Assembly (NCBI GenBank): GCA_947460345.1
Contig: CANHGM010000013.1
Span: 18,610-82,609, forward strand
Length of the DNA stretch: 64,000 bases
Source of the DNA: Bacteroidota bacterium
GTDB lineage: Bacteria; Bacteroidota; Bacteroidia; UKL13-3
Reading direction: 5' to 3'
Below are positions 32,048 through 45,359 of this stretch, piece by piece; positions within the stretch are counted from its first letter, which is position 1, and each line of letters starts with the position of its first letter. The translations under genes and the position numbers were made by a program. The notes beneath the pieces are model-generated. The model was not told the origin of the DNA. It ran no database searches and saw only the letters and a list, made by a program, of their open reading frames with translations.

Positions 32048-35000
32048 TTATTTAATATCAACTATTCTTAATGAAAGTGTTTCTCCATTTGCTGTTAAGC
32101 GAATAGTATATACACCGCCAGATAACTGATTTCCAGTATTAATTGGTAACTGATAATTTCCTGCAGATTGTTTTGCGTTAAGCAAAGTAGCGATTTTTCT
32201 GCCTGTGATATCAAAGATTTCAATATTAATTAATGAAGATTCTGTTATCGTGTAATTCAATGTAGTATTTCCATTGTATGGATTTGGATATACTTCAATT
32301 CCATTTACTGAAGTTGAAATGCTTTGAATATTGCTATTGATTACAGTTGAAGTTGAACTGCTATCTTTACAAGAATTAGTATTTGTTACAATTAATTTTA
32401 CATTATATGTACCATTAGTTGCATAAATATGAATTGGGTTTTGTTGTGAGCTATTTGAAGCGTCTCCAAAGTCCCAATTATATGAATTCCCAGCAGCAAC
32501 ATCTGTTGCAGTAAATTGAACATTAGTACTTAAGCTTTGCAAACGTGATGAAGTGAATGCACCACTCGGAGCTGTTAATAATGATATTTTAATACTATCT
32601 CTTGAAACACAACCATTAGCATCTGTTACATCTACAAAATAAGTTCCAGCTGTATTTACTGAAATAGATTGAGTTGAAGCTCCAGTATTCCAAGCAAATT
32701 GTGAACCTTGACCTGCATCAATTGAAGCAGATGTACCAGGACAGTAACCTTTATCTGCACCTAAATTAACAGGCGTAACATTAAATATACTTACGTTAGC
32801 TGTATCAGAATTAACACAACCATTTGCATCTGTAACTTTTACCCAAACTGAACCAGCAGTTGAAGTAGAGAATGTAGAACTTGACGTTCCATCACTCCAT
32901 AAATATGAACTATAAGAACCGCCATTGAAATTTGCACTTGAATTTGGACAAATAGTTTGGTCACTTATAGAAGGTTTAGGTAAAGCGTTTACTTTAATAA
33001 AACGAGAAACAACTGTGTCACATCCTACTGCACTATCTTTTACTGATATCATTATAATATATATAGAGTCCGCTTCAGCATTTGTAGGAGAGAATGTTAA
33101 GGTTGCATTGGAAGCACCAGGTGCAGATACCGAATATGTTCCTAATGATGGTGTTGTTCCATTGATAGTTGCAATTGATAATGATTTAATAATCCATGTT
33201 GTACCAAAACCACCATTACCAAATTGCGTTGGTGGAGTTAATTCATATTTAACAGAACTACCAATACATACACCATCAGGATTTCCTGAGGTTCCATTAT
33301 TAAAATTACCATTATATGGATTGCCTTTAATAATACTTACACCCATTGGAGCAGGTGTGAATGCTACCGATATACTACCATTTCCTGAACAACCACCTGG
33401 AGTGATAACGTCAACTGAATAGTTACCTGCGTTCGTTACATTTATTTTTTGAGTTGTATCTCCAGTATTCCATAAATATTTATATCCAGCACCAAAGTTA
33501 CCTGCATCTAATGATACACTAGTTCCACCGCAAGCTGTAATATTTGAACCCAAATTAACTGTAGGGGCAGTATAAATATTTACTTGAATTGAATCTGTTG
33601 AGGTTAATCCAGTTATAAAATCAGTGATAGTTGCATAGTATAAACCAGTTGCATATGTATTTAATGTATCATATGTTGAACCTGTATTCCATTCTACTGA
33701 ATAATTAGCATTTGAAGTAGGATTTGCATTTAATAATACATCTGAACAACTAGAAGTATCAGGACCAAGATCAATAGTAGGTTTCTCAGCTATTAATACA
33801 TTGTCAATATCAACAAAATATGCAGTTGCTGAATTATCTATACTCAAGAATACTGCAGAAACATTACTACCTGCGTTATTTCCTAAATCATATACAAAAT
33901 CTTGGTATGAATTAAAATTAGTGTTATTAGAATTGATATTGAAAACTTGATTAAATGTTTTACCACAATCGAACGTCAAATAAACTGCTATCGAATCGTC
34001 TTGACCTAACTGAGAAGAAGCTCTGTAGCTAAATTTGAATACAGATTTCGAAGTTAATGGACCTACAATTGGAGTATTACCAAATGCAACTGGTCTTGCA
34101 GCTGTCATATTTGCTCTTAAGCATCTTGTTCCACCTACTCCTGTAATAGCAGAAGTTATCAAGTTGTTTGAAGTATAAGAAGCAGGAATATTAGCTGCTG
34201 TATTGAAATCTTCAATATAATCTTGTGTAATTGGTTGAACGGTATTGATGGTGAATTTAGAAGTATCGTTAAATGCATCGCTATCACCAGCAGTAACTGC
34301 ATAAATTAAGAAATCATATGAACTAGCTAAGCTGCTCAAATCTAATGTACCAGCAAAGTTTACTGTCATTGTATCATTAGGTGCCATAATTCCACTTGTG
34401 ATAATTGTATCTAAAGTTGCTGTAGTTCCTCCAGAAACATTTACTGTTACTTGTAAATTATGAACTGAGAAATCTAAAGTATCTGTACCAACATTTTCTA
34501 ATAAAACAGAAACTGGTTCTGCATTACTATAACAAGCATAGTCACCAGGTGCCGTAACACTTCTAATTCCAGCATCAATTGCGAAAGGATTAATCAATAT
34601 AATATCATAATCTTCAGTTTCACCAAAAGTAGCAGAAGCACAAGGATCAATATTAGTATTGTTAAATACTTCTCTTACTCTTAATATATTATATCCAGAA
34701 GTAACTCCTGTTGGAATTGTAAATGTGATACTTCCAGCGGTATTAGCTGCCATGTTATTTAGTTGTCCAAGTTTTTCACTAGCTTCAAATGTACCATTTA
34801 AGTTATAATCTATCCATGCAGCTATATTGTTTCCTGCACCATTATATGAACCAGGAGCCACATCTAATGAATATGTTTGACCAATTAACAAAGGAGAACC
34901 AGCACCTGAATAATAGTTATAATAAGGAGCCGCAGAAGCACCAGTTTGATTATTAATAGCATTAGCTAAAACTACACTAGAAATAAAATCGCCAGATCCA

Positions 35001-36733
35001 GAACCAGTAGTGTAAGTTGGCTTACAATAGCAATCAGCAATTTTCTTAGTGATAACTGTTACAGTACTTGAAGTATCAGTGTTTCCAGAACAAGTAATAT
35101 AACAACGGTATGATAAGTTTGAAGATTGAGTTGTAGCAAATGATGCTTTGGTTGCACCAGTTATATTAGTCCATGAAGTACCATTGCTAGAAGATTGCCA
35201 TTGATACGTTTGACCATTACCATAAGTATTTGAATTTAATGACAAATTGAAAACAGTAGCTGGACATACGCTATCTAATGAAGAAACTGCTGTACCTGCT
35301 GTAGGTGTTGCATTACATTGTGGTAGTCTGATGTAAACTAAATAATCTTCAGTTTCACCATATCCATAGTTTCCACAAGAATTTACTAAAGCTGGATTAG
35401 TTGTTTCCATTAACACTACACGTAATCTTGTAACACCATTTTCAGCACTTGATGGAATAAGAACAGAATCTCCAACTACATTACCGTAGGCAACAGTTGC
35501 TCGGCTATATGTTCTTTGTAACATTACTCTTTCAGAGCTTTCGTCAAATTGGCCATCTTGGTTATAATCTATATAAACTTTAGCATGGCAAGTATAGAAA
35601 GTAGCAGATGAATTGATTTGTGTAACTTGCATAAAATACTTTGAATTTGCATCAAAAGTATCAGGCGTCAAATTAGTGAAATCACTATATGTATTTACTG
35701 AAGTACTATTTGATAATGCAGGTAGAGAATCTAATCCATTTGAGAAATTTCCAAATATAAATCTTCCGATATCATCATCTAATGTACTGTTAGATGCTGA
35801 TTTGCAATAACAATTATAAAATGGATTTAAATATATTAGTTTAGATGATGCTGTATCAGCACTTCCGCTACATTCTGTATAAAATCTGTAGTAAGTATCT
35901 GCAGTTATTGAAACAGTTAACGTTTTTTTAGTTGCACCATTGATATTTGTCCAAGTAGTTCCATCGCTAGATGATTGCCATTGAAATGTTTGACCACTTC
36001 CAAAAGTACCACCTGAAACAGATAAATTTAAATTAATACCTGGGCAGATAGAATCTTTTTGACTAAAAACCGAACCAGCTGTAGGTGTACCTGAACACGG
36101 AGCCAATGTATCAATGGTAACTGTATAGTCATGTGCCATACCTGAACCCATAGCTAAACAAGCATCTCCTGAACCATTTTGATTTCCAGATAAACGAGTT
36201 CTAACTCTCATTCCTGTTTGACCTAACAAAGCATTAGCAGGAACTGTTATAGTATTTGTAGCTGCTTGATTTGCAGTACTAGAGGTAGTTATTTGAACCC
36301 ACTCAGAAGCATCAAAAGTACCACTTTGATCATAGTCAATCCAAACTGACATGATAGCTGAAGAACTTGAGGTTACACTAATTGTGTATGTGTTGAAATT
36401 AGTTGTTCTGTATAAGGTTGCGGTAGTATTACCGTTAGCACTATATGAATTTGTTCTACTCACACCATTACAGGTAGATACAGAATTATCCAAAGTTGTA
36501 CCTTGAATATTCACATTGGTAATCATGTCAGCTGTTGAACAGTTACCTCCATTGGTATGTGAGGCTGTACAATACTGAGCATTTGAAAAATTTGCAGTTA
36601 TTAAAACAAACATACATGCCATGAGCATTTTGTTGAGTGTTGTCCTAATTAACTTGCTTCTAAAAATAGAGTAATTAATTTTCATTTGTATTTTTATTAA
36701 ATTATAGGGTCTACAAAGGTAACTATAACTCAA
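32048..36733 (-). CDS. Large (1561 aa) secreted surface protein with GEVED motifs, a PKD domain and a T9SS type A C-terminal sorting domain
   Basis: C-terminal type-A CTD (EVYPNPYNGNTTLNYTI...GGVYTIRLTANGETLSLRIVDIK). GETEDY motifs at two sites (GYGETEDYLVYI, TFGETEDYDIIL). PKD core YNWDFGDASNSSQQNPIHIY. Duplicated module ...QWQSSSDGTTWTNINGATK... / ...QWQSSSNGTSWTNITGATK.... Probable true start at the internal MKINYS Met (about 36688), which gives a signal peptide. Confidence 0.8.
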   Translation of the reverse strand: MSYSYLCRPYNLIKIQMKINYSIFRSKLIRTTLNKMLMACMFVLITANFSNAQYCTASHTNGGNCSTADMITNVNIQGTTLDNSVSTCNGVSRTNSYSANGNTTATLYRTTNFNTYTISVTSSSSAIMSVWIDYDQSGTFDASEWVQITTSSTANQAATNTITVPANALLGQTGMRVRTRLSGNQNGSGDACLAMGSGMAHDYTVTIDTLAPCSGTPTAGSVFSQKDSICPGINLNLSVSGGTFGSGQTFQWQSSSDGTTWTNINGATKKTLTVSITADTYYRFYTECSGSADTASSKLIYLNPFYNCYCKSASNSTLDDDIGRFIFGNFSNGLDSLPALSNSTSVNTYSDFTNLTPDTFDANSKYFMQVTQINSSATFYTCHAKVYIDYNQDGQFDESSERVMLQRTYSRATVAYGNVVGDSVLIPSSAENGVTRLRVVLMETTNPALVNSCGNYGYGETEDYLVYIRLPQCNATPTAGTAVSSLDSVCPATVFNLSLNSNTYGNGQTYQWQSSSNGTSWTNITGATKASFATTQSSNLSYRCYITCSGNTDTSSTVTVITKKIADCYCKPTYTTGSGSGDFISSVVLANAINNQTGASAAPYYNYYSGAGSPLLIGQTYSLDVAPGSYNGAGNNIAAWIDYNLNGTFEASEKLGQLNNMAANTAGSITFTIPTGVTSGYNILRVREVFNNTNIDPCASATFGETEDYDIILINPFAIDAGIRSVTAPGDYACYSNAEPVSVLLENVGTDTLDFSVHNLQVTVNVSGGTTATLDTIITSGIMAPNDTMTVNFAGTLDLSSLASSYDFLIYAVTAGDSDAFNDTSKFTINTVQPITQDYIEDFNTAANIPASYTSNNLITSAITGVGGTRCLRANMTAARPVAFGNTPIVGPLTSKSVFKFSYRASSQLGQDDSIAVYLTFDCGKTFNQVFNINSNNTNFNSYQDFVYDLGNNAGSNVSAVFLSIDNSATAYFVDIDNVLIAEKPTIDLGPDTSSCSDVLLNANPTSNANYSVEWNTGSTYDTLNTYATGLYYATITDFITGLTSTDSIQVNIYTAPTVNLGSNITACGGTSVSLDAGNFGAGYKYLWNTGDTTQKINVTNAGNYSVDVITPGGCSGNGSISVAFTPAPMGVSIIKGNPYNGNFNNGTSGNPDGVCIGSSVKYELTPPTQFGNGGFGTTWIIKSLSIATINGTTPSLGTYSVSAPGASNATLTFSPTNAEADSIYIIMISVKDSAVGCDTVVSRFIKVNALPKPSISDQTICPNSSANFNGGSYSSYLWSDGTSSSTFSTSTAGSVWVKVTDANGCVNSDTANVSIFNVTPVNLGADKGYCPGTSASIDAGQGSQFAWNTGASTQSISVNTAGTYFVDVTDANGCVSRDSIKISLLTAPSGAFTSSRLQSLSTNVQFTATDVAAGNSYNWDFGDASNSSQQNPIHIYATNGTYNVKLIVTNTNSCKDSSSTSTVINSNIQSISTSVNGIEVYPNPYNGNTTLNYTITESSLINIEIFDITGRKIATLLNAKQSAGNYQLPINTGNQLSGGVYTIRLTANGETLSLRIVDIK

Positions 36734-39102: not shown

Positions 39103-39137
39103 TAAAAAAAACGCCTTTTGTAATGTTAAAGGCGTTT
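39103..39137 (-). terminator. Rho-independent terminator closing the three-gene cluster 40943->39169
   Basis: 10-bp stem aaacgccttt/aaaggcgttt with a 9-nt loop. U8 follows on the minus strand. About 30 nt after the lipoprotein gene stop. Confidence 0.55.
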
Positions 39138-39168
39138 TAATTTAAAAGATTTGTAAAGTAATTCTTAC

Positions 39169-39558
39169 TTATGGCTTCACCCAAAAAGAGACTGATTGTG
39201 ATTGAATATTATCACTATGGTCTGATACTGTTACTGTTAATGTATATTTTTTTAAATAATCTATCGAAGCTATTTTAAAGTTCTTTTGAAATTTAAAGTT
39301 GTTTTGTTCATGTACATATGGGTTGTCAGTAAAGATATTATTACCCATACTATCAGTAACCACTACAGTACTTTCATGTAAATCTGTATTATCAGACATG
39401 TCAATATCTAATTTAATATCATTATATACAGAAAAGGTATCCGTTGAAATTGGTTTATTTATAGTGATAGATGGCTTTTCAGTATCTTTTTTAGAACAAG
39501 ATACAACATATATACTCAAGGTAATTATTGTTGTAAATATAATTTTTGAATTTTTCAT
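39169..39558 (-). CDS. Small lipoprotein of unknown function (129 aa, Ig-like/DUF4625-like by composition)
   Basis: Signal plus lipobox (LSIYVVSCSKK). Beta-rich, no catalytic motifs. Last gene of the terminator-bounded cluster. Confidence 0.45.
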   Translation of the reverse strand: MKNSKIIFTTIITLSIYVVSCSKKDTEKPSITINKPISTDTFSVYNDIKLDIDMSDNTDLHESTVVVTDSMGNNIFTDNPYVHEQNNFKFQKNFKIASIDYLKKYTLTVTVSDHSDNIQSQSVSFWVKP

Positions 39559-39576
39559 TTGTGTTTTTTTAATTTG

Positions 39577-40482
39577 TTAAAATAAATAATTTACTCCGAG
39601 CAATACTCGAGCATTACTATGGGTGTTTCCATTAGACAAATATTCATATATTGGTTTTTGAATATTTAAAGTTGCAGAAATGTTTTTATAATAAATATCA
39701 CACCCCAAAACAGCTTGAATTGAAGTTCCACCAGTATAATTTACAACACCTGTATTTCTTCTTTTATCGTCACTAGTGGCATTTAAAATAATAGAAGTGC
39801 TAGGTATTATTAATAGTTTATTTAATGAAAACCAGTATCCCAATTTTGCTAAACAACTCCAACGGTTGCCAAACTTATATCCATTTACATTATACGTATT
39901 TAATTTATAATTAGCCTCTGATTGAAAACTAATATTATTTTTTCTAATTGAATACAATGTACTTATAGGTAAATCAAAAGACCCGCTTCCAAGTTGTATA
40001 TTGGGGTTAAGAAGCAATTCGTTTTTTAGTACTTGAAATTTACCAGTAGGTATTTTTATTCCAGCGTTCAACATCCATAAATGTTTTAACCGCTTATTTT
40101 GAGTTGAGTTTACTAGTATATAATTAAACAACGCTGTAGCGTCTCCTATTCCCGAAACAGATGAAACAACTCCATTGTCCCAAACTTTATTTTGAATAAA
40201 AGGAATATTAATCAATACTTGAATTTTAATGTTTTTAGCATATCTACACCATATATCAGAAGATGTACTGGTGTTTATTGTTTTTGTAGAATGAATCACA
40301 GGCACAATTGATAGTTGTTCAGTTGTAAACTTTATGTGGCTATACCTTAAACCTATAAAACTTTTTTGTATTTGAGGCAAAGAACCCATAAAATTTGCAG
40401 CAGTTGAATAACCACACATATCGCATGCTTGTGCCATTCCACTTAAGCATAACAATGCCCATGTGAAATAATTTTTAAACAT
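39577..40482 (-). CDS. Putative outer-membrane beta-barrel transporter-like protein with an N-terminal CxxC motif
   Basis: Signal peptide cleaved at AQA-CDMCG. Alternating beta-strand pattern and aromatic C-terminal residue (…GVNYLF). Resembles the 'transporter'/MetA-pathway-like OM barrels of Bacteroidota. Family unverified. Confidence 0.4.
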   Translation of the reverse strand: MFKNYFTWALLCLSGMAQACDMCGYSTAANFMGSLPQIQKSFIGLRYSHIKFTTEQLSIVPVIHSTKTINTSTSSDIWCRYAKNIKIQVLINIPFIQNKVWDNGVVSSVSGIGDATALFNYILVNSTQNKRLKHLWMLNAGIKIPTGKFQVLKNELLLNPNIQLGSGSFDLPISTLYSIRKNNISFQSEANYKLNTYNVNGYKFGNRWSCLAKLGYWFSLNKLLIIPSTSIILNATSDDKRRNTGVVNYTGGTSIQAVLGCDIYYKNISATLNIQKPIYEYLSNGNTHSNARVLLGVNYLF

Positions 40483-40553
40483 AAATTTAATTAAATGATA
40501 TTGTGAAACTTATCTATAGTAATTTATAGATACTTTTTGTTTTCGTTTAATAT

Positions 40554-40943
40554 TTAAACTATCTCGGGTGGATGAAAAAACCCGCGGCTAGGCATATAAT
40601 CATATAAATTATCCTTAATTGACATAAAGGATAACAAGGGTATAAACATATAATTATCTAAGCCTTTTTTGGTACTCAAAATAAAACTTTCTAGTTCTGG
40701 TATTTTGGGCTTAGCCTGCTCTATAGGCTTTGTCACATCTTGCGATTCAACCTCTTCTGTTTTGTCGAGTTGTTTTTTTAAATGACAACAACCACCACAT
40801 TTAAGTTCTGGTTTGCTTTTGTTTACACAAAATTCAGCTATTATCTTATCTTGATTTACTTTCCAATAAATCATTAAACAAGTTTTAGTTATCAGTTGAA
40901 AACTAAATACCAATAGCAACAATATTGCAAAACCTTTTTTCAA
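40554..40943 (-). CDS. Small Cys-rich membrane-anchored protein (possibly the HYC_CC_PP-type family of Bacteroidota)
   Basis: N-terminal TM/signal, Cys cluster ...FCVNKSKPELKCGGCCHLKKQ... and a PP near the C-terminus (FFHPPEIV). 129 aa. Family name recalled from memory, not verified. Confidence 0.45.
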   Translation of the reverse strand: MKKGFAILLLLVFSFQLITKTCLMIYWKVNQDKIIAEFCVNKSKPELKCGGCCHLKKQLDKTEEVESQDVTKPIEQAKPKIPELESFILSTKKGLDNYMFIPLLSFMSIKDNLYDYMPSRGFFHPPEIV

Positions 40944-41013
40944 AGTTACAAACTTACAACATATTAAATGTTCTTTTATAATTACAATCTTATTTTGTAA
41001 TGATTAGTTATAA

Positions 41014-42348
41014 CTAATTTATATATTTCTGAATAATGCTTTTTACATGATCATTCCCTTTAATATTATCTATCAAATCTTTAGCTATTATTTCATCAAT
41101 TATTTTATCATTAACAGCTCCTCTGGCTTTAGCTTCAGCATATGGTACTGTGCTAAAAGTCACTAGTTCATATTGGCTTTTAAAAATATCAGAAAAATGC
41201 TCGCATAAATCGTGTTCTATATGTTTTCGAAGTAAGAAATCAACATCTCCTACTTTCTCAGCCATTTCAGTAAAATTTTGTATAGCTAAGTCGGCAATTG
41301 CATCAGCATTAGGTTTTCTTAGTTCTTGGTAATGGCTAAAAACTTCAGTCCAATTTGGATAATATTTTTCTATACATTCATCTAAAACTACGCAATCTTC
41401 AAAAGAGCAATTCATTCCTTGGCCAAAGAATGGCACCACGGCGTGAGCTGCATCTCCCATTAAAGCTAACTTATCTGCTTTTACCCATGGATAACATTTA
41501 ACTGTTACCAAAGCTCCAATTGGATTTTTAAAAAAGTCTTCTTGTAGAGTTGGCATTAATGGCAAAGCATCAGCAAATTCTGATTTAAAAAAATCTAAAA
41601 CAGCTTCTTTACTGTTTAATTGGTCAAACCCAGGTTTACCTTGATGAGCTAAAAACAATGTTAATGTAAAGTCACCTGCTGGATTTGGAAGTGCAATCAT
41701 CATATATGCACCACGTGGCCATATATGTAAGCAGTTTTTATCCATCATAAAATTACCCAAAGCATCAGGCGGAATTATTAATTCTTTATATCCTACATAT
41801 AAATAACTTTGAGAATAATCAAACCTATCTGTAATTTGAAGACGGCCTCTTGTCGCTGCAAACGCACCATCTGTTCCAATAATTCTGTCAGCTTTATGTG
41901 TGATACTTTCACCTTTTTCATTTTCGAAAACAGCAATTGCTTTATCAATATCTACATCTTTACATTTATGGTTAAAATGTAAATTAATATTGTCATATGC
42001 GTCCGCCAATTCCAATAATCTTAAATTTAACCTTCCTCTTGAAACAGAGTTTATGGCTTGATTGTTTGTTCCATATGGTTGGTAGTTAAGTTCACCCGTT
42101 CTGCTATGCATCATTCGCCCATACATAGGAATAGCATCACTTAAGACTTCATCGTCTAGACCTACTTTTTTTAGGGCTTCTATACCTCTAATAGACAGTG
42201 CTAAGTTTATACTTTTACCAGCAGAAATTCTATTGGTTCGCATATCTGGTCTTCTTTCGAAAACATCAACTGTAAATCCTCTTTTAGCTAAATATATGGC
42301 CATTAAAGAGCCTGAGAGTCCACCGCCAACAATAGTTATCTTTTCCAT
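41014..42348 (-). CDS. kmo: Kynurenine 3-monooxygenase (FAD-dependent)
   Basis: N-terminal FAD-binding motif KITIVGGGLSGSLMAIYLAKRGFTVDVFERRPDMR. 444 aa, class A flavoprotein monooxygenase length, C-terminal hydrophobic tail. Typical of flavobacterial KMO. Confidence 0.75.
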   Translation of the reverse strand: MEKITIVGGGLSGSLMAIYLAKRGFTVDVFERRPDMRTNRISAGKSINLALSIRGIEALKKVGLDDEVLSDAIPMYGRMMHSRTGELNYQPYGTNNQAINSVSRGRLNLRLLELADAYDNINLHFNHKCKDVDIDKAIAVFENEKGESITHKADRIIGTDGAFAATRGRLQITDRFDYSQSYLYVGYKELIIPPDALGNFMMDKNCLHIWPRGAYMMIALPNPAGDFTLTLFLAHQGKPGFDQLNSKEAVLDFFKSEFADALPLMPTLQEDFFKNPIGALVTVKCYPWVKADKLALMGDAAHAVVPFFGQGMNCSFEDCVVLDECIEKYYPNWTEVFSHYQELRKPNADAIADLAIQNFTEMAEKVGDVDFLLRKHIEHDLCEHFSDIFKSQYELVTFSTVPYAEAKARGAVNDKIIDEIIAKDLIDNIKGNDHVKSIIQKYIN

Positions 42349-42450: not shown

Positions 42451-42485
42451 AAATCCGCCCTAATTAGAGCGGATTTAATTTTTTT
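42451..42485 (-). terminator. Rho-independent (bidirectional) terminator after the 952-aa repeat protein gene
   Basis: Stem aaatccgc/gcggattt with a ~10-nt loop. T7/A7 runs on both sides. 16 nt after the stop at 42501. Confidence 0.5.
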
Positions 42486-42500
42486 ATTAAATTACTTTAT

Positions 42501-45359
42501 TTATTCAACAATGAATTTACTAGAAATAGTTCCTTCGTTGGTATTTAATTGTAATATATATATTCCTTTAGCAAAATTACTCACATCAATAGTTTCAACA
42601 TTATTCCCTAGAGATGCATTGTTGTTATTTTGATTGAACAACAATTTACCTTGCATATCATATATATGAATTTGCATAGGAGAGTATTTATTTAAGCTAT
42701 ATAATACTTGTAATTTTTCTCTAGTAGGGTTAGGATACAATTCAAATACTTTCACGATAGAAGATACTGAACCTATACCAACATAACTTGTACCATCTAC
42801 AGCAACTGTTTGTGTATTAGCTCCTTGGCTCGACACAATTACAGATCCGTTATGAGTACCAGCACTCGATGGGTTGTATCTCACATATATAATTTTAGTT
42901 GAAACTGAACCACCAGATGGTGATAATAACAACGAATTGTTAAACCCACTAGATGGACTTAATGACACTTCAAAATTAGTAGGTGATGAAACTGTAATAT
43001 CTCCTAACAAATTAGAACCATTCACTGCCATTGCTTGTGCTGCTGATGGAGTACCTAAAGTTGTAACAAAACTATTTGAAATATTAGTAGCTGTAACAAC
43101 AGGACCAGCTGGTAAAGTTGCAGTACCGCTTAAACTTACTGAAACAGTTGTAGCACCAGAAGAAACGTTGTCTATATCTCCAATATGATTACCTGCAGTA
43201 GTTGGGTTGTATCTAACATAGACAGTTCCATTGTTTACTTTTCCACCAACAGGATTAAAGTATACTGAACCACCAAAACCTGTAGTTGAACTTAATGACA
43301 CCTGAAAATCAGCTGGTGCTGAAACCAATAACAAACCAGTAAGGTCAGAACCAATAACTGTATATAATTGAGCAGTTGATGGTGTACCCACTTGAGTAGT
43401 GAATGGATTTAATAAAGAAACTGAAGTAGTAATTACAGGTGTTATAGTTCCTGAAGTTGTTCCATTTACCAATACGTTTTGAGTAGTTGCTCCCAAAGAA
43501 ACACAAGTGATATTTCCTGAATGAGGCCCTGAAACAAATGGATTATAACGAACATATACAGTAGTCGAATTTACTGTACCTTGATTCTCATTTAATACTA
43601 CAAAGCTAGAGAAACCAGAACCTGAACTTAATGAAACCTCAAATTCATTTGGTGCAGTTACTACAATATCAAAATTTAAATTCACACCTGAAACTTTAAA
43701 GCTTTGTTCTGAACTGGTTGTTCCAACACTTGTTGAAAAGGCAGTTAGTGATGAAACACTTGCAGTAATTGTTGGATTGGTATTAACTGTAGCAGAACCG
43801 CTGATATTTATACCTTTAGAATTAGCACCTGATGAAGAACAAATAAGATCTCCATTATGGTTACCAGCAACAGAAGGGTTATATCTAACATATATATTAG
43901 TACTTCCAACTGTACCTGATGATGGTGATAATGATACACTAGAACCGAAGCCACTAGTTGTATTTAATGACACTTCAAAATGTGTTGGTGCAGACACTAT
44001 TAAATTAGCGGTCAAATTTGTTCCAGACACACTAAAGTTTTGTGTAGAACTAGGTATACCTACATAAGTTGAAAAAGCATTTAAAGAATTTACACTTATA
44101 GTAATATTGGGTGTATTGTTAACCGATGCATTTCCAGTAACAGCTACATTTTTAGTAGTAGCTCCAGTTGAAGTACAAGCAATATTTCCATTATGAGAAC
44201 CTGAAGCTGAAGGATTGTATCTAACATATACTGTTCCATTAGATACCACGCCTGAATTAGGTGAAAAAGATACGCTACTTCCAAATCCAGAATTTGAATT
44301 TAATGAAACTTCAAACTGAGAAGGTGCTGTTACCACAAGATTAGAAGATAAATCACTGCCTGAAACTGTAAAGTTTTGAACAGAGCTAGCTGTTCCTACG
44401 GTGGTAGAAAATGCACTTAATGAAGACACACTTGTTACTATAGTAGGTATTGGGCTACCTGTTGAATTTCCACTCACTGCAACATTTTGGGTAGTTGCAC
44501 TAGTTGAAGTACAAGTAACATTGCCATTATGAGAACCGGCTGCTGAAGGATTGTATCTAACATATACTGTTTGATTGTTTACTTTCCCGTTTGATGGAGA
44601 AAATGATACAGAACTTCCAAAGCCAGAACCGCTGCTTAATGATACTTCAAATTGAGAAGGTGCTGATACAATTAAATTAGATACTAAATCATTACCCGAC
44701 ACAGTGAAACCAACCGAACTGCTTGGAGTTCCAACAGTTGTAGTAAATGCATTTAAAGCACTCACTGATGTAATAATCACGGGTGACGGATTTCCAGTTG
44801 TACCGCTTACTGCCACACTTTGTGAAGATGCCCCAGAAGATGTACAGCTAATATTTCCACTATGCTGACCAGAAGCTGATGGATTATATCTAACATAAAT
44901 AACAGTTGTGGCAACACTTCCTGAAATAGGAGTAAGATTTAAAGATGAACCATAACCACTTCCAGATGCTAAAGATATTTCAAAACTACTTGGAGCACTT
45001 AAAGATATATTTCCAGTTAAGTTAGTTCCTGAAATAGAAAAACTTTGATTAGAAGAGGGTGTTCCTACAGTTGTAGTAAAGGTTGACAAATTAGCGGTAA
45101 CATATATAGTTGGTTTGTTTCCTGAACCTCCAGTAGAGCCAACAGGATCAACTTGTTGAAAACCTTGAGTAAGAATAATCCCACCTGAGGTTGCAGTGGT
45201 TACACCACCTGCTTCTCCTACAGTAAAGGATACTTGCATTCCTCCAGCTTGAACATGCTCACCAGCTGAGCCAAGCACTGAAGGTGATAGACTTTGAGCC
45301 TGGCTACTAAAAGCAAGACTAAAGCCTAGTATGAATAATAAAAGAAATCTTTTCATCAC
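42501..45359 (-). CDS. Secreted surface protein built from seven tandem ~111-aa repeats, with a T9SS type A C-terminal sorting domain
   Basis: Signal peptide. Seven repeats of the pattern PxIxTSVSSLxAFSTxVGTxSSxQxFxVSGxxLxxNLxVSAPxxFEVSLxxxSGFGSSVSxSP..G.V....VYVRYNPSxxGxHNGNxxCxSxGATTxNVAVSG. C-terminal CTD ...FELYPNPTREKLQVL...GIYILQLNTNEGTISSKFIVE. Confidence 0.8.
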   Translation of the reverse strand: MMKRFLLLFILGFSLAFSSQAQSLSPSVLGSAGEHVQAGGMQVSFTVGEAGGVTTATSGGIILTQGFQQVDPVGSTGGSGNKPTIYVTANLSTFTTTVGTPSSNQSFSISGTNLTGNISLSAPSSFEISLASGSGYGSSLNLTPISGSVATTVIYVRYNPSASGQHSGNISCTSSGASSQSVAVSGTTGNPSPVIITSVSALNAFTTTVGTPSSSVGFTVSGNDLVSNLIVSAPSQFEVSLSSGSGFGSSVSFSPSNGKVNNQTVYVRYNPSAAGSHNGNVTCTSTSATTQNVAVSGNSTGSPIPTIVTSVSSLSAFSTTVGTASSVQNFTVSGSDLSSNLVVTAPSQFEVSLNSNSGFGSSVSFSPNSGVVSNGTVYVRYNPSASGSHNGNIACTSTGATTKNVAVTGNASVNNTPNITISVNSLNAFSTYVGIPSSTQNFSVSGTNLTANLIVSAPTHFEVSLNTTSGFGSSVSLSPSSGTVGSTNIYVRYNPSVAGNHNGDLICSSSGANSKGINISGSATVNTNPTITASVSSLTAFSTSVGTTSSEQSFKVSGVNLNFDIVVTAPNEFEVSLSSGSGFSSFVVLNENQGTVNSTTVYVRYNPFVSGPHSGNITCVSLGATTQNVLVNGTTSGTITPVITTSVSLLNPFTTQVGTPSTAQLYTVIGSDLTGLLLVSAPADFQVSLSSTTGFGGSVYFNPVGGKVNNGTVYVRYNPTTAGNHIGDIDNVSSGATTVSVSLSGTATLPAGPVVTATNISNSFVTTLGTPSAAQAMAVNGSNLLGDITVSSPTNFEVSLSPSSGFNNSLLLSPSGGSVSTKIIYVRYNPSSAGTHNGSVIVSSQGANTQTVAVDGTSYVGIGSVSSIVKVFELYPNPTREKLQVLYSLNKYSPMQIHIYDMQGKLLFNQNNNNASLGNNVETIDVSNFAKGIYILQLNTNEGTISSKFIVE
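42800..45100. repeat. Seven tandem ~333-bp DNA repeats inside the 952-aa gene
   Basis: The anchor ggRttRtatctaacatatac recurs at 42879, 43203, 43540, 43878, 44219, 44550 and 44881 with a period of 324-341 nt. The protein-level VYVRYNP repeats match. Confidence 0.7.

Follow-up and report, generated by a model that had tools for sequence, protein, structure and literature searches.

The three genes analysed here form a self-contained operon that is widely conserved in Bacteroidota. On balance, we favor the interpretation that this operon encodes a copper-acquisition module of the cell envelope under leader-peptide control, comprising a leader, a barrel conduit and a lipoprotein partner.

Organization and conservation of the operon

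The operon and its control regions occupy the following positions of the window, that is, the whole 64-kb stretch of DNA that was analysed.

40944-41013, minus strand: intergenic region upstream of the putative leader gene, sequence read directly
40943-40554, minus strand: putative leader gene (gene 1), open reading frame of 129 aa with a TTG start
40785-40829, minus strand: Cys cluster C39-x9-C49-G-G-C-C53, invariant in the family alignment
40566-40577, minus strand: F-H-P-P (TTT CAT CCA CCC), followed by E-I-V and the stop, identified by family conservation
40483-40553, minus strand: leader-barrel intergenic region, 71 nt
40482-39577, minus strand: barrel gene (gene 2), open reading frame of 301 aa
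39558-39169, minus strand: lipoprotein gene (gene 3), open reading frame of 129 aa
39103-39137, minus strand: Rho-independent terminator, supported by folding and shuffles

As the earlier note had described, the genes are co-directional, are separated by short gaps (71 nt between leader and barrel, 18 nt between barrel and lipoprotein) and end in a terminator. The terminator hairpin starts 31 nt 3′ of the gene 3 stop and consists of AAACGCCTTT, a 9-nt loop and AAAGGCGTTT followed by T8, with a G+C-containing stem of 10-11 bp. Its folding energy is -16.6 kcal/mol (z = -4.55), and none of 200 shuffled sequences was as stable. The consensus terminator scan missed the hairpin at 39137-39103 because the loop limit of the scan is 8 nt and the hairpin loop is 9 nt long. 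The sigma-70 promoter scan returned 21 sites for 23.3 expected, which is no better than shuffles. Upstream of the leader gene, TAAGTTTG at 40956-40949 and TAAGATTG at 40992-40985 are candidate Bacteroidota -7-type boxes, for which the consensus is TAnnTTTG. No terminator was found between the leader gene and the upstream gene, which encodes a KMO/VioC-like monooxygenase and is not kept beside the operon in homologous loci.

Related loci were retrieved with an alignment of five barrel sequences. The leader-barrel-lipoprotein trio was found again in unrelated genomic contexts (L001, L011, L012, L018, L030, L053, L091 and others); the arrangement is thus not due to chance, and the co-occurrence in other genomes for which a synteny survey had been suggested is present. 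The location of the trio in the envelope, also put forward in the earlier note, is conserved as well, with an N-terminal anchor in gene 1, a signal peptide in gene 2 and a lipobox in gene 3.

The gene 1 family

Gene 1 starts with TTG, and its homologues start with MK at the equivalent position. The N-terminus of the protein consists of MKK and a hydrophobic segment at residues 5 to 23 (mean hydropathy 2.06) that is kept in the family alignment. The protein matches its first description as a 129-residue, N-terminally anchored protein with CGGCC and PP motifs: CGGCC is found at residues 49-53 and PP at residues 125-126, three residues before the stop. It belongs to a family of exported or anchored Bacteroidota proteins of about 125 residues, which public records label 'hypothetical protein' and for which counts are given here over 178 unique sequences. 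The family motif is C-x9-C-x-G-x-C, and C39, N41, C49, G51, C53, P125 and P126 are invariant. The first cysteine lies exactly 10 residues ahead of CxGxC in 172 of the 178 sequences, and the Cys cluster is located 12-26 residues past the membrane anchor. The PP pair is conserved at 98-99%, most often as FHPP (69/170). Both CxGxC and a PP located 1-9 residues from the stop are present in 170 of the 178 members, and the spacing from Cys to PP ranges from 61 to 75 residues with a median of 67. Residues 60-115 in between are very poorly conserved, yet their length is constrained.

A second leader subfamily is homologous to the first (hhalign 99.9%, E 5e-31) and retains only the anchor, one cysteine and the FHPP end. 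A leader of this superfamily comes first in 63 of the 71 related clusters with intact upstream sequence. Two loci, L005 and L009, each carry two leader copies, one before a lipoprotein and a TonB-copper-like receptor and the other before MbnP/MbnH. Searches at E<=1 with the window protein and 46 relatives gave no match in NCBIfam and none in Pfam, PF11162 included. Four leaders of the second subfamily and two further type-1 copies from L005 and L009 had no NCBIfam match either, and PF11162 was not matched at E<=10 by 10 further members from both subfamilies. The assignment of gene 1 to HYC_CC_PP, as suggested in the earlier note, is therefore not supported; a literature search found no publication on HYC_CC_PP.

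We read gene 1 as a regulatory leader because of its first place in the operon, the PP close to the stop, the constrained spacing from Cys to PP and the poorly conserved middle. The earlier note took it for a structural Cys-rich membrane protein, but the anatomy points to a regulatory leader of the CruR/CutF type. By analogy with these proteins, gene 1 may encode a copper-sensing leader peptide that acts by ribosome stalling, with C-x9-C-x-G-x-C as the proposed Cu(I)-sensing site and FHPP as the proposed ribosome-arrest motif.

The spacer between leader and barrel genes contains an AT-rich hairpin formed by TATCTATA (40532-40525) and TATAGATA (40518-40511), whose minimum free energy of -7.1 kcal/mol (z = -1.29) is weak by itself. 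Across 43 homologous spacers the median z is -1.39, and 23% are below -2. The median length of the spacer downstream of leaders is 71 nt where a barrel gene comes next and 137 nt where MbnP does. The regions 3′ of leaders are long and structured on average, and the hairpin in the 71-nt spacer is possibly a regulatory element.

The gene 2 barrel and the gene 3 lipoprotein

The signal peptide of gene 2 ends in AQA and is followed by the mature sequence CDMCGY (codons 40425-40408). The AlphaFold2 model has high confidence (pLDDT 88.8, pTM 0.83) and is a 12-stranded β-barrel of the COG4313/FapF type, in agreement with the β-barrel with a CDMCG mature N-terminus that had been expected. A Cys-rich mature N-terminus, which follows an AxA cleavage site and not a lipobox, is kept in 217 of 234 sequences; no other feature of the family's sequence is conserved as strongly. 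The family consensus is CDxCGC, of which the window barrel (CDMCGY) has two of the three cysteines. This family comprises at least 885 clusters at E<1e-30 and has no Pfam or NCBIfam model of its own. Its proposed likeness to Phenol_MetA_deg was not recovered at the level of Pfam: the window protein has no Pfam match, and PF13557 is matched by only 4 of 59 relatives (best E 1.3e-7). No catabolic genes are conserved beside the barrel in homologous loci. PcoB was not among the top structural matches of the gene 2 model, and a literature search for COG4313 together with copper found nothing relevant.

Gene 3 has a VVS-C21 lipobox (Cys codon 39498-39496), and its single-sequence model is all-β with low confidence (pLDDT 55), which fits its earlier description as a small β-rich lipoprotein. 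The suggested likeness to DUF4625 (PF15418) is carried weakly by the family, with matches for 8 of 17 relatives (best E 2.6e-7), but the window protein itself scores 22.6 bits (E 1.3e-4), under the cut-off of 27. When the gene 3 family profile was compared with solved structures, the matches were marginal and Ig/FnIII-like only. Gene 3 encodes a lipoprotein whose DUF4625-like Ig fold is weakly indicated. His61 (LH) and His114 (DH) are conserved in the family, and many members have a His-rich HxH near residue 83. A lipoprotein gene of this type lies directly 3′ of the barrel gene in at least 13 loci. We also considered gene 3 as a mini-MbnP, since an iterated HMM drew in MbnP proteins; hhalign showed that the shared part is the lipoprotein signal peptide only, the idea was therefore rejected, and clean profiles were rebuilt after the gene 3 HMM had begun to collect these proteins.

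Copper genes in sister loci

Most sister clusters contain MbnP (E 1e-52), which binds copper and is matured by MbnH (PMC11951088), together with a CCP_MauG di-haem peroxidase (E 1e-51 to 1e-58). Among 83 loci, the order leader-MbnP-MbnH-barrel was observed in 21, MbnP-MbnH-barrel in 15, leader-barrel-MbnP-MbnH in 7 and leader-barrel-DUF4625-like in 13. Further neighbors include a YHS domain protein, PepSY_TM and DUF4198, and leader and barrel also occur beside TonB-copper-like receptors, CopD-like genes and nos genes. In L091, a cytochrome c gene and a nos_propeller (NosZ-type) gene follow about 3 kb downstream of the identical trio, and in L090 a leader-YtkA-TBDT cluster is joined to nos accessory genes of the NosD/ABC type. 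The clusters contained no genes related to zinc, mercury or thiol oxidoreduction (Zur, mer, DsbA/TlpA types). Of the metal handling (Cu/Zn) that the earlier note had suggested, a role for a thiophilic metal, specifically copper, is supported by these neighborhoods, and the zinc part finds no counterpart among the neighbors. The 64-kb window holds no MbnP (PF20243), no CCP_MauG/MbnH and no other copper gene, and copper is most likely the metal of the window trio as well, an assignment made by association in other genomes. A functional tie between the upstream monooxygenase and the kynurenine-containing MbnP was considered and rejected, since the adjacency is not conserved and the window is without MbnP.

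Comparison with known systems

The statement of the earlier note that no function is characterised for this arrangement holds for the barrel and the lipoprotein but not for the leader, the logic of which has proteobacterial counterparts (PMC9426467; 10.1101/2022.11.11.516240). In Bordetella pertussis, CruR (Bp2923, DUF2946) heads the bp2923-bfrG-bp2921 operon and represses this uptake system when copper is present (PMC9426467). The gene 1 family resembles CruR in its small size (<150 aa, here 129), N-terminal anchor, Cys motif, PP near the C-terminus and conserved motif spacing, in the sizeable intergenic region before an outer-membrane transporter gene, and in heading operons with TonB receptors and MbnPH. 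It differs in its motifs (C-x9-C-x-G-x-C and FHPP, where CruR has CXXC and RAPP), in its Cys-to-PP spacing of about 67 residues (61-75) versus 45 in DUF2946 (PMC9426467), in its occurrence in Bacteroidota, and in being followed by a 12-stranded barrel, not a TonB-dependent transporter. Since the window leader family does not match PF11162, the parallel with CruR and CutF may be one of analogy and not of homology.

CutF, encoded in the cutFOG operon of Rhodobacter capsulatus, senses periplasmic copper as a nascent chain during its co-translational export; a Shine-Dalgarno site is then unmasked, which induces a detoxifying multicopper oxidase, and many 'CutF-like' Bacteroidota proteins were catalogued in the CutF study (10.1101/2022.11.11.516240; 10.1101/2025.02.05.636593). 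Gene 1 shares with CutF a CxxxC motif (here C49-GGC-C53), a C-terminal proline motif and a short intergenic stem-loop before the next gene. The downstream genes are different, since a lipoprotein and a channel are encoded here, and the hairpin is a weak one. Shine-Dalgarno sequences are seldom used in Bacteroidota; such use is therefore unlikely here, and the stem-loop mechanism of CutF is not simply transferable.

The modelled 12-stranded fold of gene 2 resembles those of Pput2725 (COG4313, PDB 4rl8; Phenol_MetA_deg) and FapF (PDB 5o65), with a sequence identity of 10-13%, and gene 2 falls below the Pfam model. Only the window barrel family has CDxCGC at its mature N-terminus and copper genes as neighbors; the known channels of this type transport hydrophobic molecules or amyloid subunits, and the cargo described for COG4313 channels is hydrophobic molecules and not ions. 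OprC/NosA are TonB-dependent copper importers and PcoB/CopB is an outer-membrane copper barrel; these proteins move or bind copper via Cys/Met-containing sites or metal-rich N-terminal tails, have other folds and sizes, and are not known to be related to gene 2 in sequence.

For gene 3, the closest parallel in genetic setting is BT1419, a DUF4625 lipoprotein of Bacteroides thetaiotaomicron proposed to be the lid of the TonB-dependent transporter BT1420 (10.1101/2023.03.17.533168). In both cases the gene of a small Ig-like lipoprotein adjoins that of an outer-membrane transporter, and relatives of gene 3 match DUF4625; unlike BT1419, gene 3 is paired with a small TonB-independent barrel and stays below the Pfam cut-off. 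In sister clusters, MbnP/MbnH (PDB 7L6G; PMC11951088) stand beside this leader and barrel, and MbnP is also a lipoprotein there; their position suggests that they may play the part of gene 3, although they are absent from the window and share no domain homology with gene 3.

Proposed mechanism and alternatives

Gene 1 would not be a structural part of the envelope but a regulatory leader, in analogy with CruR and CutF. The signal-anchor at its N-terminus would direct the nascent chain through the Sec translocon, so that with the ribosome at FHPP, three codons before the stop, the Cys cluster about 70 residues upstream would have just emerged on the periplasmic side. Whether or not copper is bound there would alter the length of the ribosome pause and thereby, across the 71-nt spacer, how far the genes that follow are transcribed or translated. 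Gene 2 would be the outer-membrane conduit, and its CDMCG tail, freed by signal-peptidase I, would bind Cu(I) as an arm or plug on the periplasmic side or in the lumen. Gene 3 might be a partner that captures metal for the barrel, or its lid, filling the place held by MbnP/MbnH in sister clusters. The sign of the regulation, and uptake versus export, are not readable from the sequence, because CruR represses uptake and CutF induces detoxification.

The module might thus work in the opposite direction and protect against excess copper or silver, the leader turning the genes on as periplasmic copper rises, like CutF for CutO, and the barrel and lipoprotein sequestering or releasing copper across the outer membrane. 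CutF-type leaders do induce detoxification genes, CutF-like proteins are mostly found upstream of efflux components, the Cys-rich barrel tail could be a metal sink, and the L001 trio adjoins YceI, an ArsR-type regulator and arsenic-resistance-like genes. We nevertheless find protection unlikely, given that the commonest partners, MbnP/MbnH and TonB-copper-type receptors, are acquisition systems (PMC9426467), that the proximity of nos genes suggests cuproenzyme supply, and that genes for RND, P-type ATPase or multicopper oxidase proteins did not turn up in any of the clusters examined. Another thiophilic metal (Zn, Cd, Hg or Ag) or an envelope thiol-disulfide redox relay could also be served by the all-Cys motifs CxGxC and CDxCGC, which are not copper-specific; the conserved residues of the lipoprotein are histidines, and sensing of Ni or Co has been proposed for some CutF-like clusters. 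The repeated linkage to MbnP/MbnH, YHS domain, TonB-copper-like, CopD-like and nos genes, and the lack of Zur, mer and DsbA/TlpA types in the clusters, make this quite improbable.

Gene 1 could instead be a stable metallochaperone or assembly factor anchored in the inner membrane, passing metal to or from the barrel tail, with PP as a structural or interaction motif. The membrane anchor is genuine, three invariant cysteines lie near the membrane, first place in an operon is no proof of regulation, and the CutF proline motif alone was no strong arrest signal in reporter fusions. Set against this are the weak conservation but constrained length of residues 60-115, the PP that in about 95% of members stands 1-9 residues short of the stop, the subfamily that has lost two of the three cysteines and retains FHPP, and the duplicate leaders that head separate sub-operons. 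A nascent-chain sensor fits these four features better than a folded chaperone, for which we see only a small chance. It is very improbable that the barrel is simply a channel of the COG4313 type that passes hydrophobic or aromatic compounds, with incidental cysteines (forming a disulfide staple, for example) and a cluster unrelated to metals: the Cys motif is the top conserved feature of its sequence, catabolic genes are not conserved alongside, the upstream monooxygenase is not retained in homologous loci, and the MbnPH linkage is strong.

Beyond the preferred reading of a copper-acquisition module lies a broader and more tentative proposal, which we think could hold but would not yet expect to. 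Bacteroidota might possess phylum-wide TonB-independent copper-uptake barrels in which CDxCGC captures Cu(I), and the expression of these barrels might be set by the leader superfamily, acting as nascent-chain copper sensors with a ribosome pause at FHPP; since it would also gate MbnP/MbnH and TonB-copper receptors, this superfamily might be the phylum's main post-transcriptional copper switch.

Significance

To our knowledge, outer-membrane copper import is poorly understood outside Proteobacteria, and essentially nothing is characterised in Bacteroidota. If correct, our interpretation would give a testable function to three unannotated families, namely the barrel, the leader superfamily and the lipoprotein partner. 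It would also extend copper sensing by a nascent exported arrest peptide, as in CruR and CutF, to a second phylum, with different motifs (FHPP, C-x9-C-x-G-x-C) and spacing; the longer distance from Cys to PP predicts that sensing would take place once the motif is out of the translocon. Finally, the linkage with nos genes and MbnPH bears on how copper may be supplied to nitrous-oxide reductase in environmental Bacteroidota.

Organization of the three-gene cluster

The arrangement described in the earlier note, three co-directional genes closed by a Rho-independent terminator (window 39103-40943), was confirmed and comprises the following minus-strand ORFs:

40943-40554, minus: gene 1, Cys-rich small protein (putative leader), 129 aa, TTG start
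40482-39577, minus: gene 2, outer-membrane protein (barrel), 301 aa
39558-39169, minus: gene 3, lipoprotein, 129 aa

Gaps of 71 nt (genes 1 and 2) and 18 nt (genes 2 and 3) separate the ORFs, and the G+C content of the trio is 28.5% versus 32% for the window. The terminator, 31 nt past the gene 3 stop, consists of hairpin arms AAACGCCTTT and AAAGGCGTTT around a 9-nt loop and a run of eight T. Its folding energy of -16.6 kcal/mol (z = -4.55) was equalled by 0 of 200 shuffles, and a consensus scan overlooked it solely because the loop limit of the scan is 8 nt. The protein descriptions also proved accurate. Gene 1 starts with MKK and a hydrophobic stretch, and its residues 49-53 are CGGCC and 125-126 are PP; in gene 2, AQA closes the signal peptide and CDMCG comes next; the lipobox of gene 3 is VVS-C21.

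Two candidate -7 boxes, matches or near-matches to the Bacteroidota promoter box TAnnTTTG, are located upstream of the leader (40956-40949 and 40992-40985, minus). The proximal one stops just 5 nt short of the TTG codon, so near that the transcript would have to be leaderless or the start codon lie further downstream; one public gene call for a 97%-identical homologue of gene 1 is 10 residues shorter.

The flanking genes in the window are housekeeping or unrelated, with ThiL, TatD and SmpB downstream and an FAD monooxygenase and a type-9-secreted repeat protein upstream. The FAD-dependent aromatic monooxygenase (41014-42348, minus, 444 aa), which looks kynurenine-3-monooxygenase-like, has a VioC-like model as its best NCBIfam match (219 bits, far under cut-off), and its adjacency to the trio is not kept in homologous loci. 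A clean terminator-like hairpin (42451-42476, minus) ends the 952-aa gene upstream (42501-45359, minus), whose product carries a type-9 secretion C-terminal sorting domain, as does a 1561-aa GEVED/PKD protein (32048-36733, minus). These two sorting domains confirm that the DNA comes from Bacteroidota.

Two of the three families in the trio lack curated models, and the third protein is a marginal DUF4625 relative. Genes 1 and 2 had no match in Pfam or NCBIfam. The proposed HYC_CC_PP label for gene 1 was not borne out, with no match in the window protein, 46 relatives or a second leader subfamily (see below), the latter matching no curated model. A Phenol_MetA_deg-like assignment of gene 2 holds weakly for 4 of 59 barrel relatives and not for the window protein; no NCBIfam model matched the barrel relatives. 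The DUF4625-like assignment of gene 3 stands for 8 of 17 relatives, the window protein scoring 22.6 bits, under the Pfam cut-off of 27.

Predicted structure of the barrel

The barrel belongs to a large family that no curated model covers: when 1.84 billion cluster representatives were searched with a profile, 3529 relatives reached E<1e-3, and 885 reached E<1e-30. The AlphaFold2 model (pLDDT 88.8, pTM 0.83) is uncertain only in its first ~40 residues. Its closest solved structures, found using Foldseek, are Pput2725 (4rl8) and FapF (5o65), then autotransporter barrels, and gene 2 is thus predicted to be a 12-stranded barrel. The best-conserved sequence feature is the extreme N-terminus of the mature protein, with C[DE]xCG present in the N-terminal region of 217 of 234 unique relatives, directly followed by another Cys in 177 of the 217; the window barrel has the variant CDMCGY. 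Position -1 is Ala in 196/217, and K, R, Q, Y or F frequently occupies position -2. Judged from these residues, the cleavage site is a signal-peptidase I AxA site and not a lipobox, so that the processed barrel would begin with a free Cys-x-x-Cys-Gly-Cys tail.

Conserved synteny with copper proteins

We surveyed 80 barrel loci, all from Bacteroidota genomes of GTDB species, jointly with the window and a set of previously retrieved loci; genes were called with custom profiles. MbnP, a copper-binding protein, and its maturation partner MbnH were identified with Pfam (PF20243, E 1e-52; CCP_MauG, E 1e-51 to 1e-58).

Gene arrangements in the barrel loci.
leader-MbnP-MbnH-barrel: 21 loci
MbnP-MbnH-barrel: 15 loci
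leader-barrel-DUF4625-like (window arrangement): 13 loci
leader-barrel-MbnP-MbnH: 7 loci
mixed forms with both DUF4625-like and MbnP/MbnH: 6 loci

The trio arrangement therefore recurs, and in Bacteroidota the barrel constantly accompanies copper-binding MbnP/MbnH. Independent look-ups seeded on leader homologues agreed, with leader-MbnP-MbnH in Sphingobacterium, Bergeyella, Flavobacterium and one MAG, and leader-MbnP-MbnH-barrel in Emticicia. The outer flanks of window-type loci are unrelated between genomes, which indicates that the trio is a self-contained unit. These results support the metal handling suggested earlier and narrow it to copper.

Two loci harbor two leader copies each (L005, 2364-2753 and 6001-6366; L009, 2513-2881 and 6001-6369), one before a YtkA-like lipoprotein and a receptor similar to TonB-copper receptors, the other before MbnP/MbnH. 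In L090 (1-8414), leader-YtkA-TBDT immediately follows NosD/ABC-type nos accessory genes, and a CopD-like gene is also present. In L091 (4992-10372), a complete window-type trio lies ~3 kb upstream of cytochrome c and nos_propeller (NosZ-type) genes. These positions hint at copper supply for N2O reductase.

Extra cluster members (L049 7822-8127; L084 10656-10943; L024 8743-9024; L057 4503-6944) include His-rich lipoproteins of ~100 aa encoded after MbnH and a YHS-domain protein whose gene separates MbnP from MbnH; PepSY_TM, DUF4198 and DinB genes are inserted between MbnH and barrel. The MbnP homologues of L024 (7919-8725), L026 (5026-5820), L037 (7913-8728) and L067 (4982-5806) have lipoprotein signal peptides with acidic residues after the Cys (e.g. 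SCDKEE, SCSDDENP). Such acidic residues resemble the surface-export signal of Bacteroidota. These MbnP homologues may thus be surface-exposed, whereas MbnP of methanotrophs is periplasmic.

The putative leader family

A profile search revealed 160 relatives of gene 1, every one named 'hypothetical'; with homologues from the fetched loci, the set contains 178 unique sequences. C39, N41, C49, G51, C53, P125 and P126 are invariant. A Cys precedes CxGxC by exactly 10 residues in 172/178, and 170/178 have both CxGxC and a PP located 1-9 residues from the stop. FH is the commonest pair before PP (FHPP in 69/170). The last Cys and PP are 61-75 residues apart (median 67), and residues 60-115 are otherwise hardly conserved.

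Loci first judged leaderless contain a second leader type, a 125-135-aa ORF just upstream of MbnP (L016, L019, L023, L026-L029, L031, L032, L038, L039, L041, L046, L054, L056, L058). Proteins of this type carry LHC in the anchor and one Cys that corresponds in position to C49, and they end in FHPP. Homology between the two types spans their full length (hhalign 99.9%, E 5e-31). A leader heads the cluster in 63 of the 71 loci for which 650 nt or more of upstream sequence was available (50 type 1, 13 type 2).

The features of gene 1 are the defining ones of two proteobacterial copper-sensing leaders. CruR (Bp2923, DUF2946), an exported protein of 145 aa, is encoded at the head of a TonB-transporter operon that copper represses; copper sensing via CXXC lifts the arrest at RAPP, three residues ahead of the C-terminus, which permits Rho-dependent termination, and operons headed by CruR homologues encode OprC-type receptors, PCuAC, CopC and MbnPH (PMC9426467). 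CutF, which combines a Sec signal with CxxxC and a proline motif at the C-terminus, senses periplasmic copper during co-translational export, a longer pause melting the stem-loop before cutO (10.1101/2022.11.11.516240; 10.1101/2025.02.05.636593). Many 'CutF-like' proteins of Bacteroidota, collected with jackhmmer, are listed in the CutF study. The Bacteroidota leaders share this logic but differ in motifs and in Cys-PP spacing (~67 residues versus 45 in CruR; PMC9426467). We reinterpret gene 1 as a putative CruR/CutF-type leader; since membership of its family in DUF2946 fails by sequence, it is termed a functional analogue, possibly a remote relative. Given the ~67-residue spacing, a ribosome on FHPP would place the Cys cluster just past the translocon on the periplasmic side, if the ribosomal tunnel holds ~30 residues and the membrane crossing takes ~17 (figures from the CutF study).

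The region between leader and next gene is in many cases long (medians of 71 nt ahead of barrels and 137 nt ahead of MbnP, maximum >400 nt) and on average folds better than shuffles (median z -1.39; 23% below -2). The hairpin of the window (40532-40511) is weak (z -1.29). The leader-barrel intergenic regions of L049 (4377-4492) and L074 fold strongly (z -3.1 and -2.1) and contain several palindromic TTAGCTAAT / ATTAGCTAA copies, which may be a lineage-specific protein-binding or RNA element.

Possible role of the barrel and lipoprotein

MbnP coordinates copper with His and Met residues and with a kynurenine that MbnH generates (PMC11951088). The simplest reading of a barrel with a thiolate-rich free N-terminus is an outer-membrane copper conduit, in which Cu(I) would be taken up by the tail. 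Less probable alternatives are a role in protection instead of uptake, and another soft metal instead of copper. DUF4625 lipoproteins have been proposed as lids of Bacteroides outer-membrane transporters (10.1101/2023.03.17.533168). The gene 3 family has conserved LH and DH histidines, often with an HxH stretch, and largely alternates with MbnP/MbnH in cluster architecture, which suggests that gene 3 is an equivalent metal-handling partner. This model of the trio is directly testable in cultured Bacteroidota.
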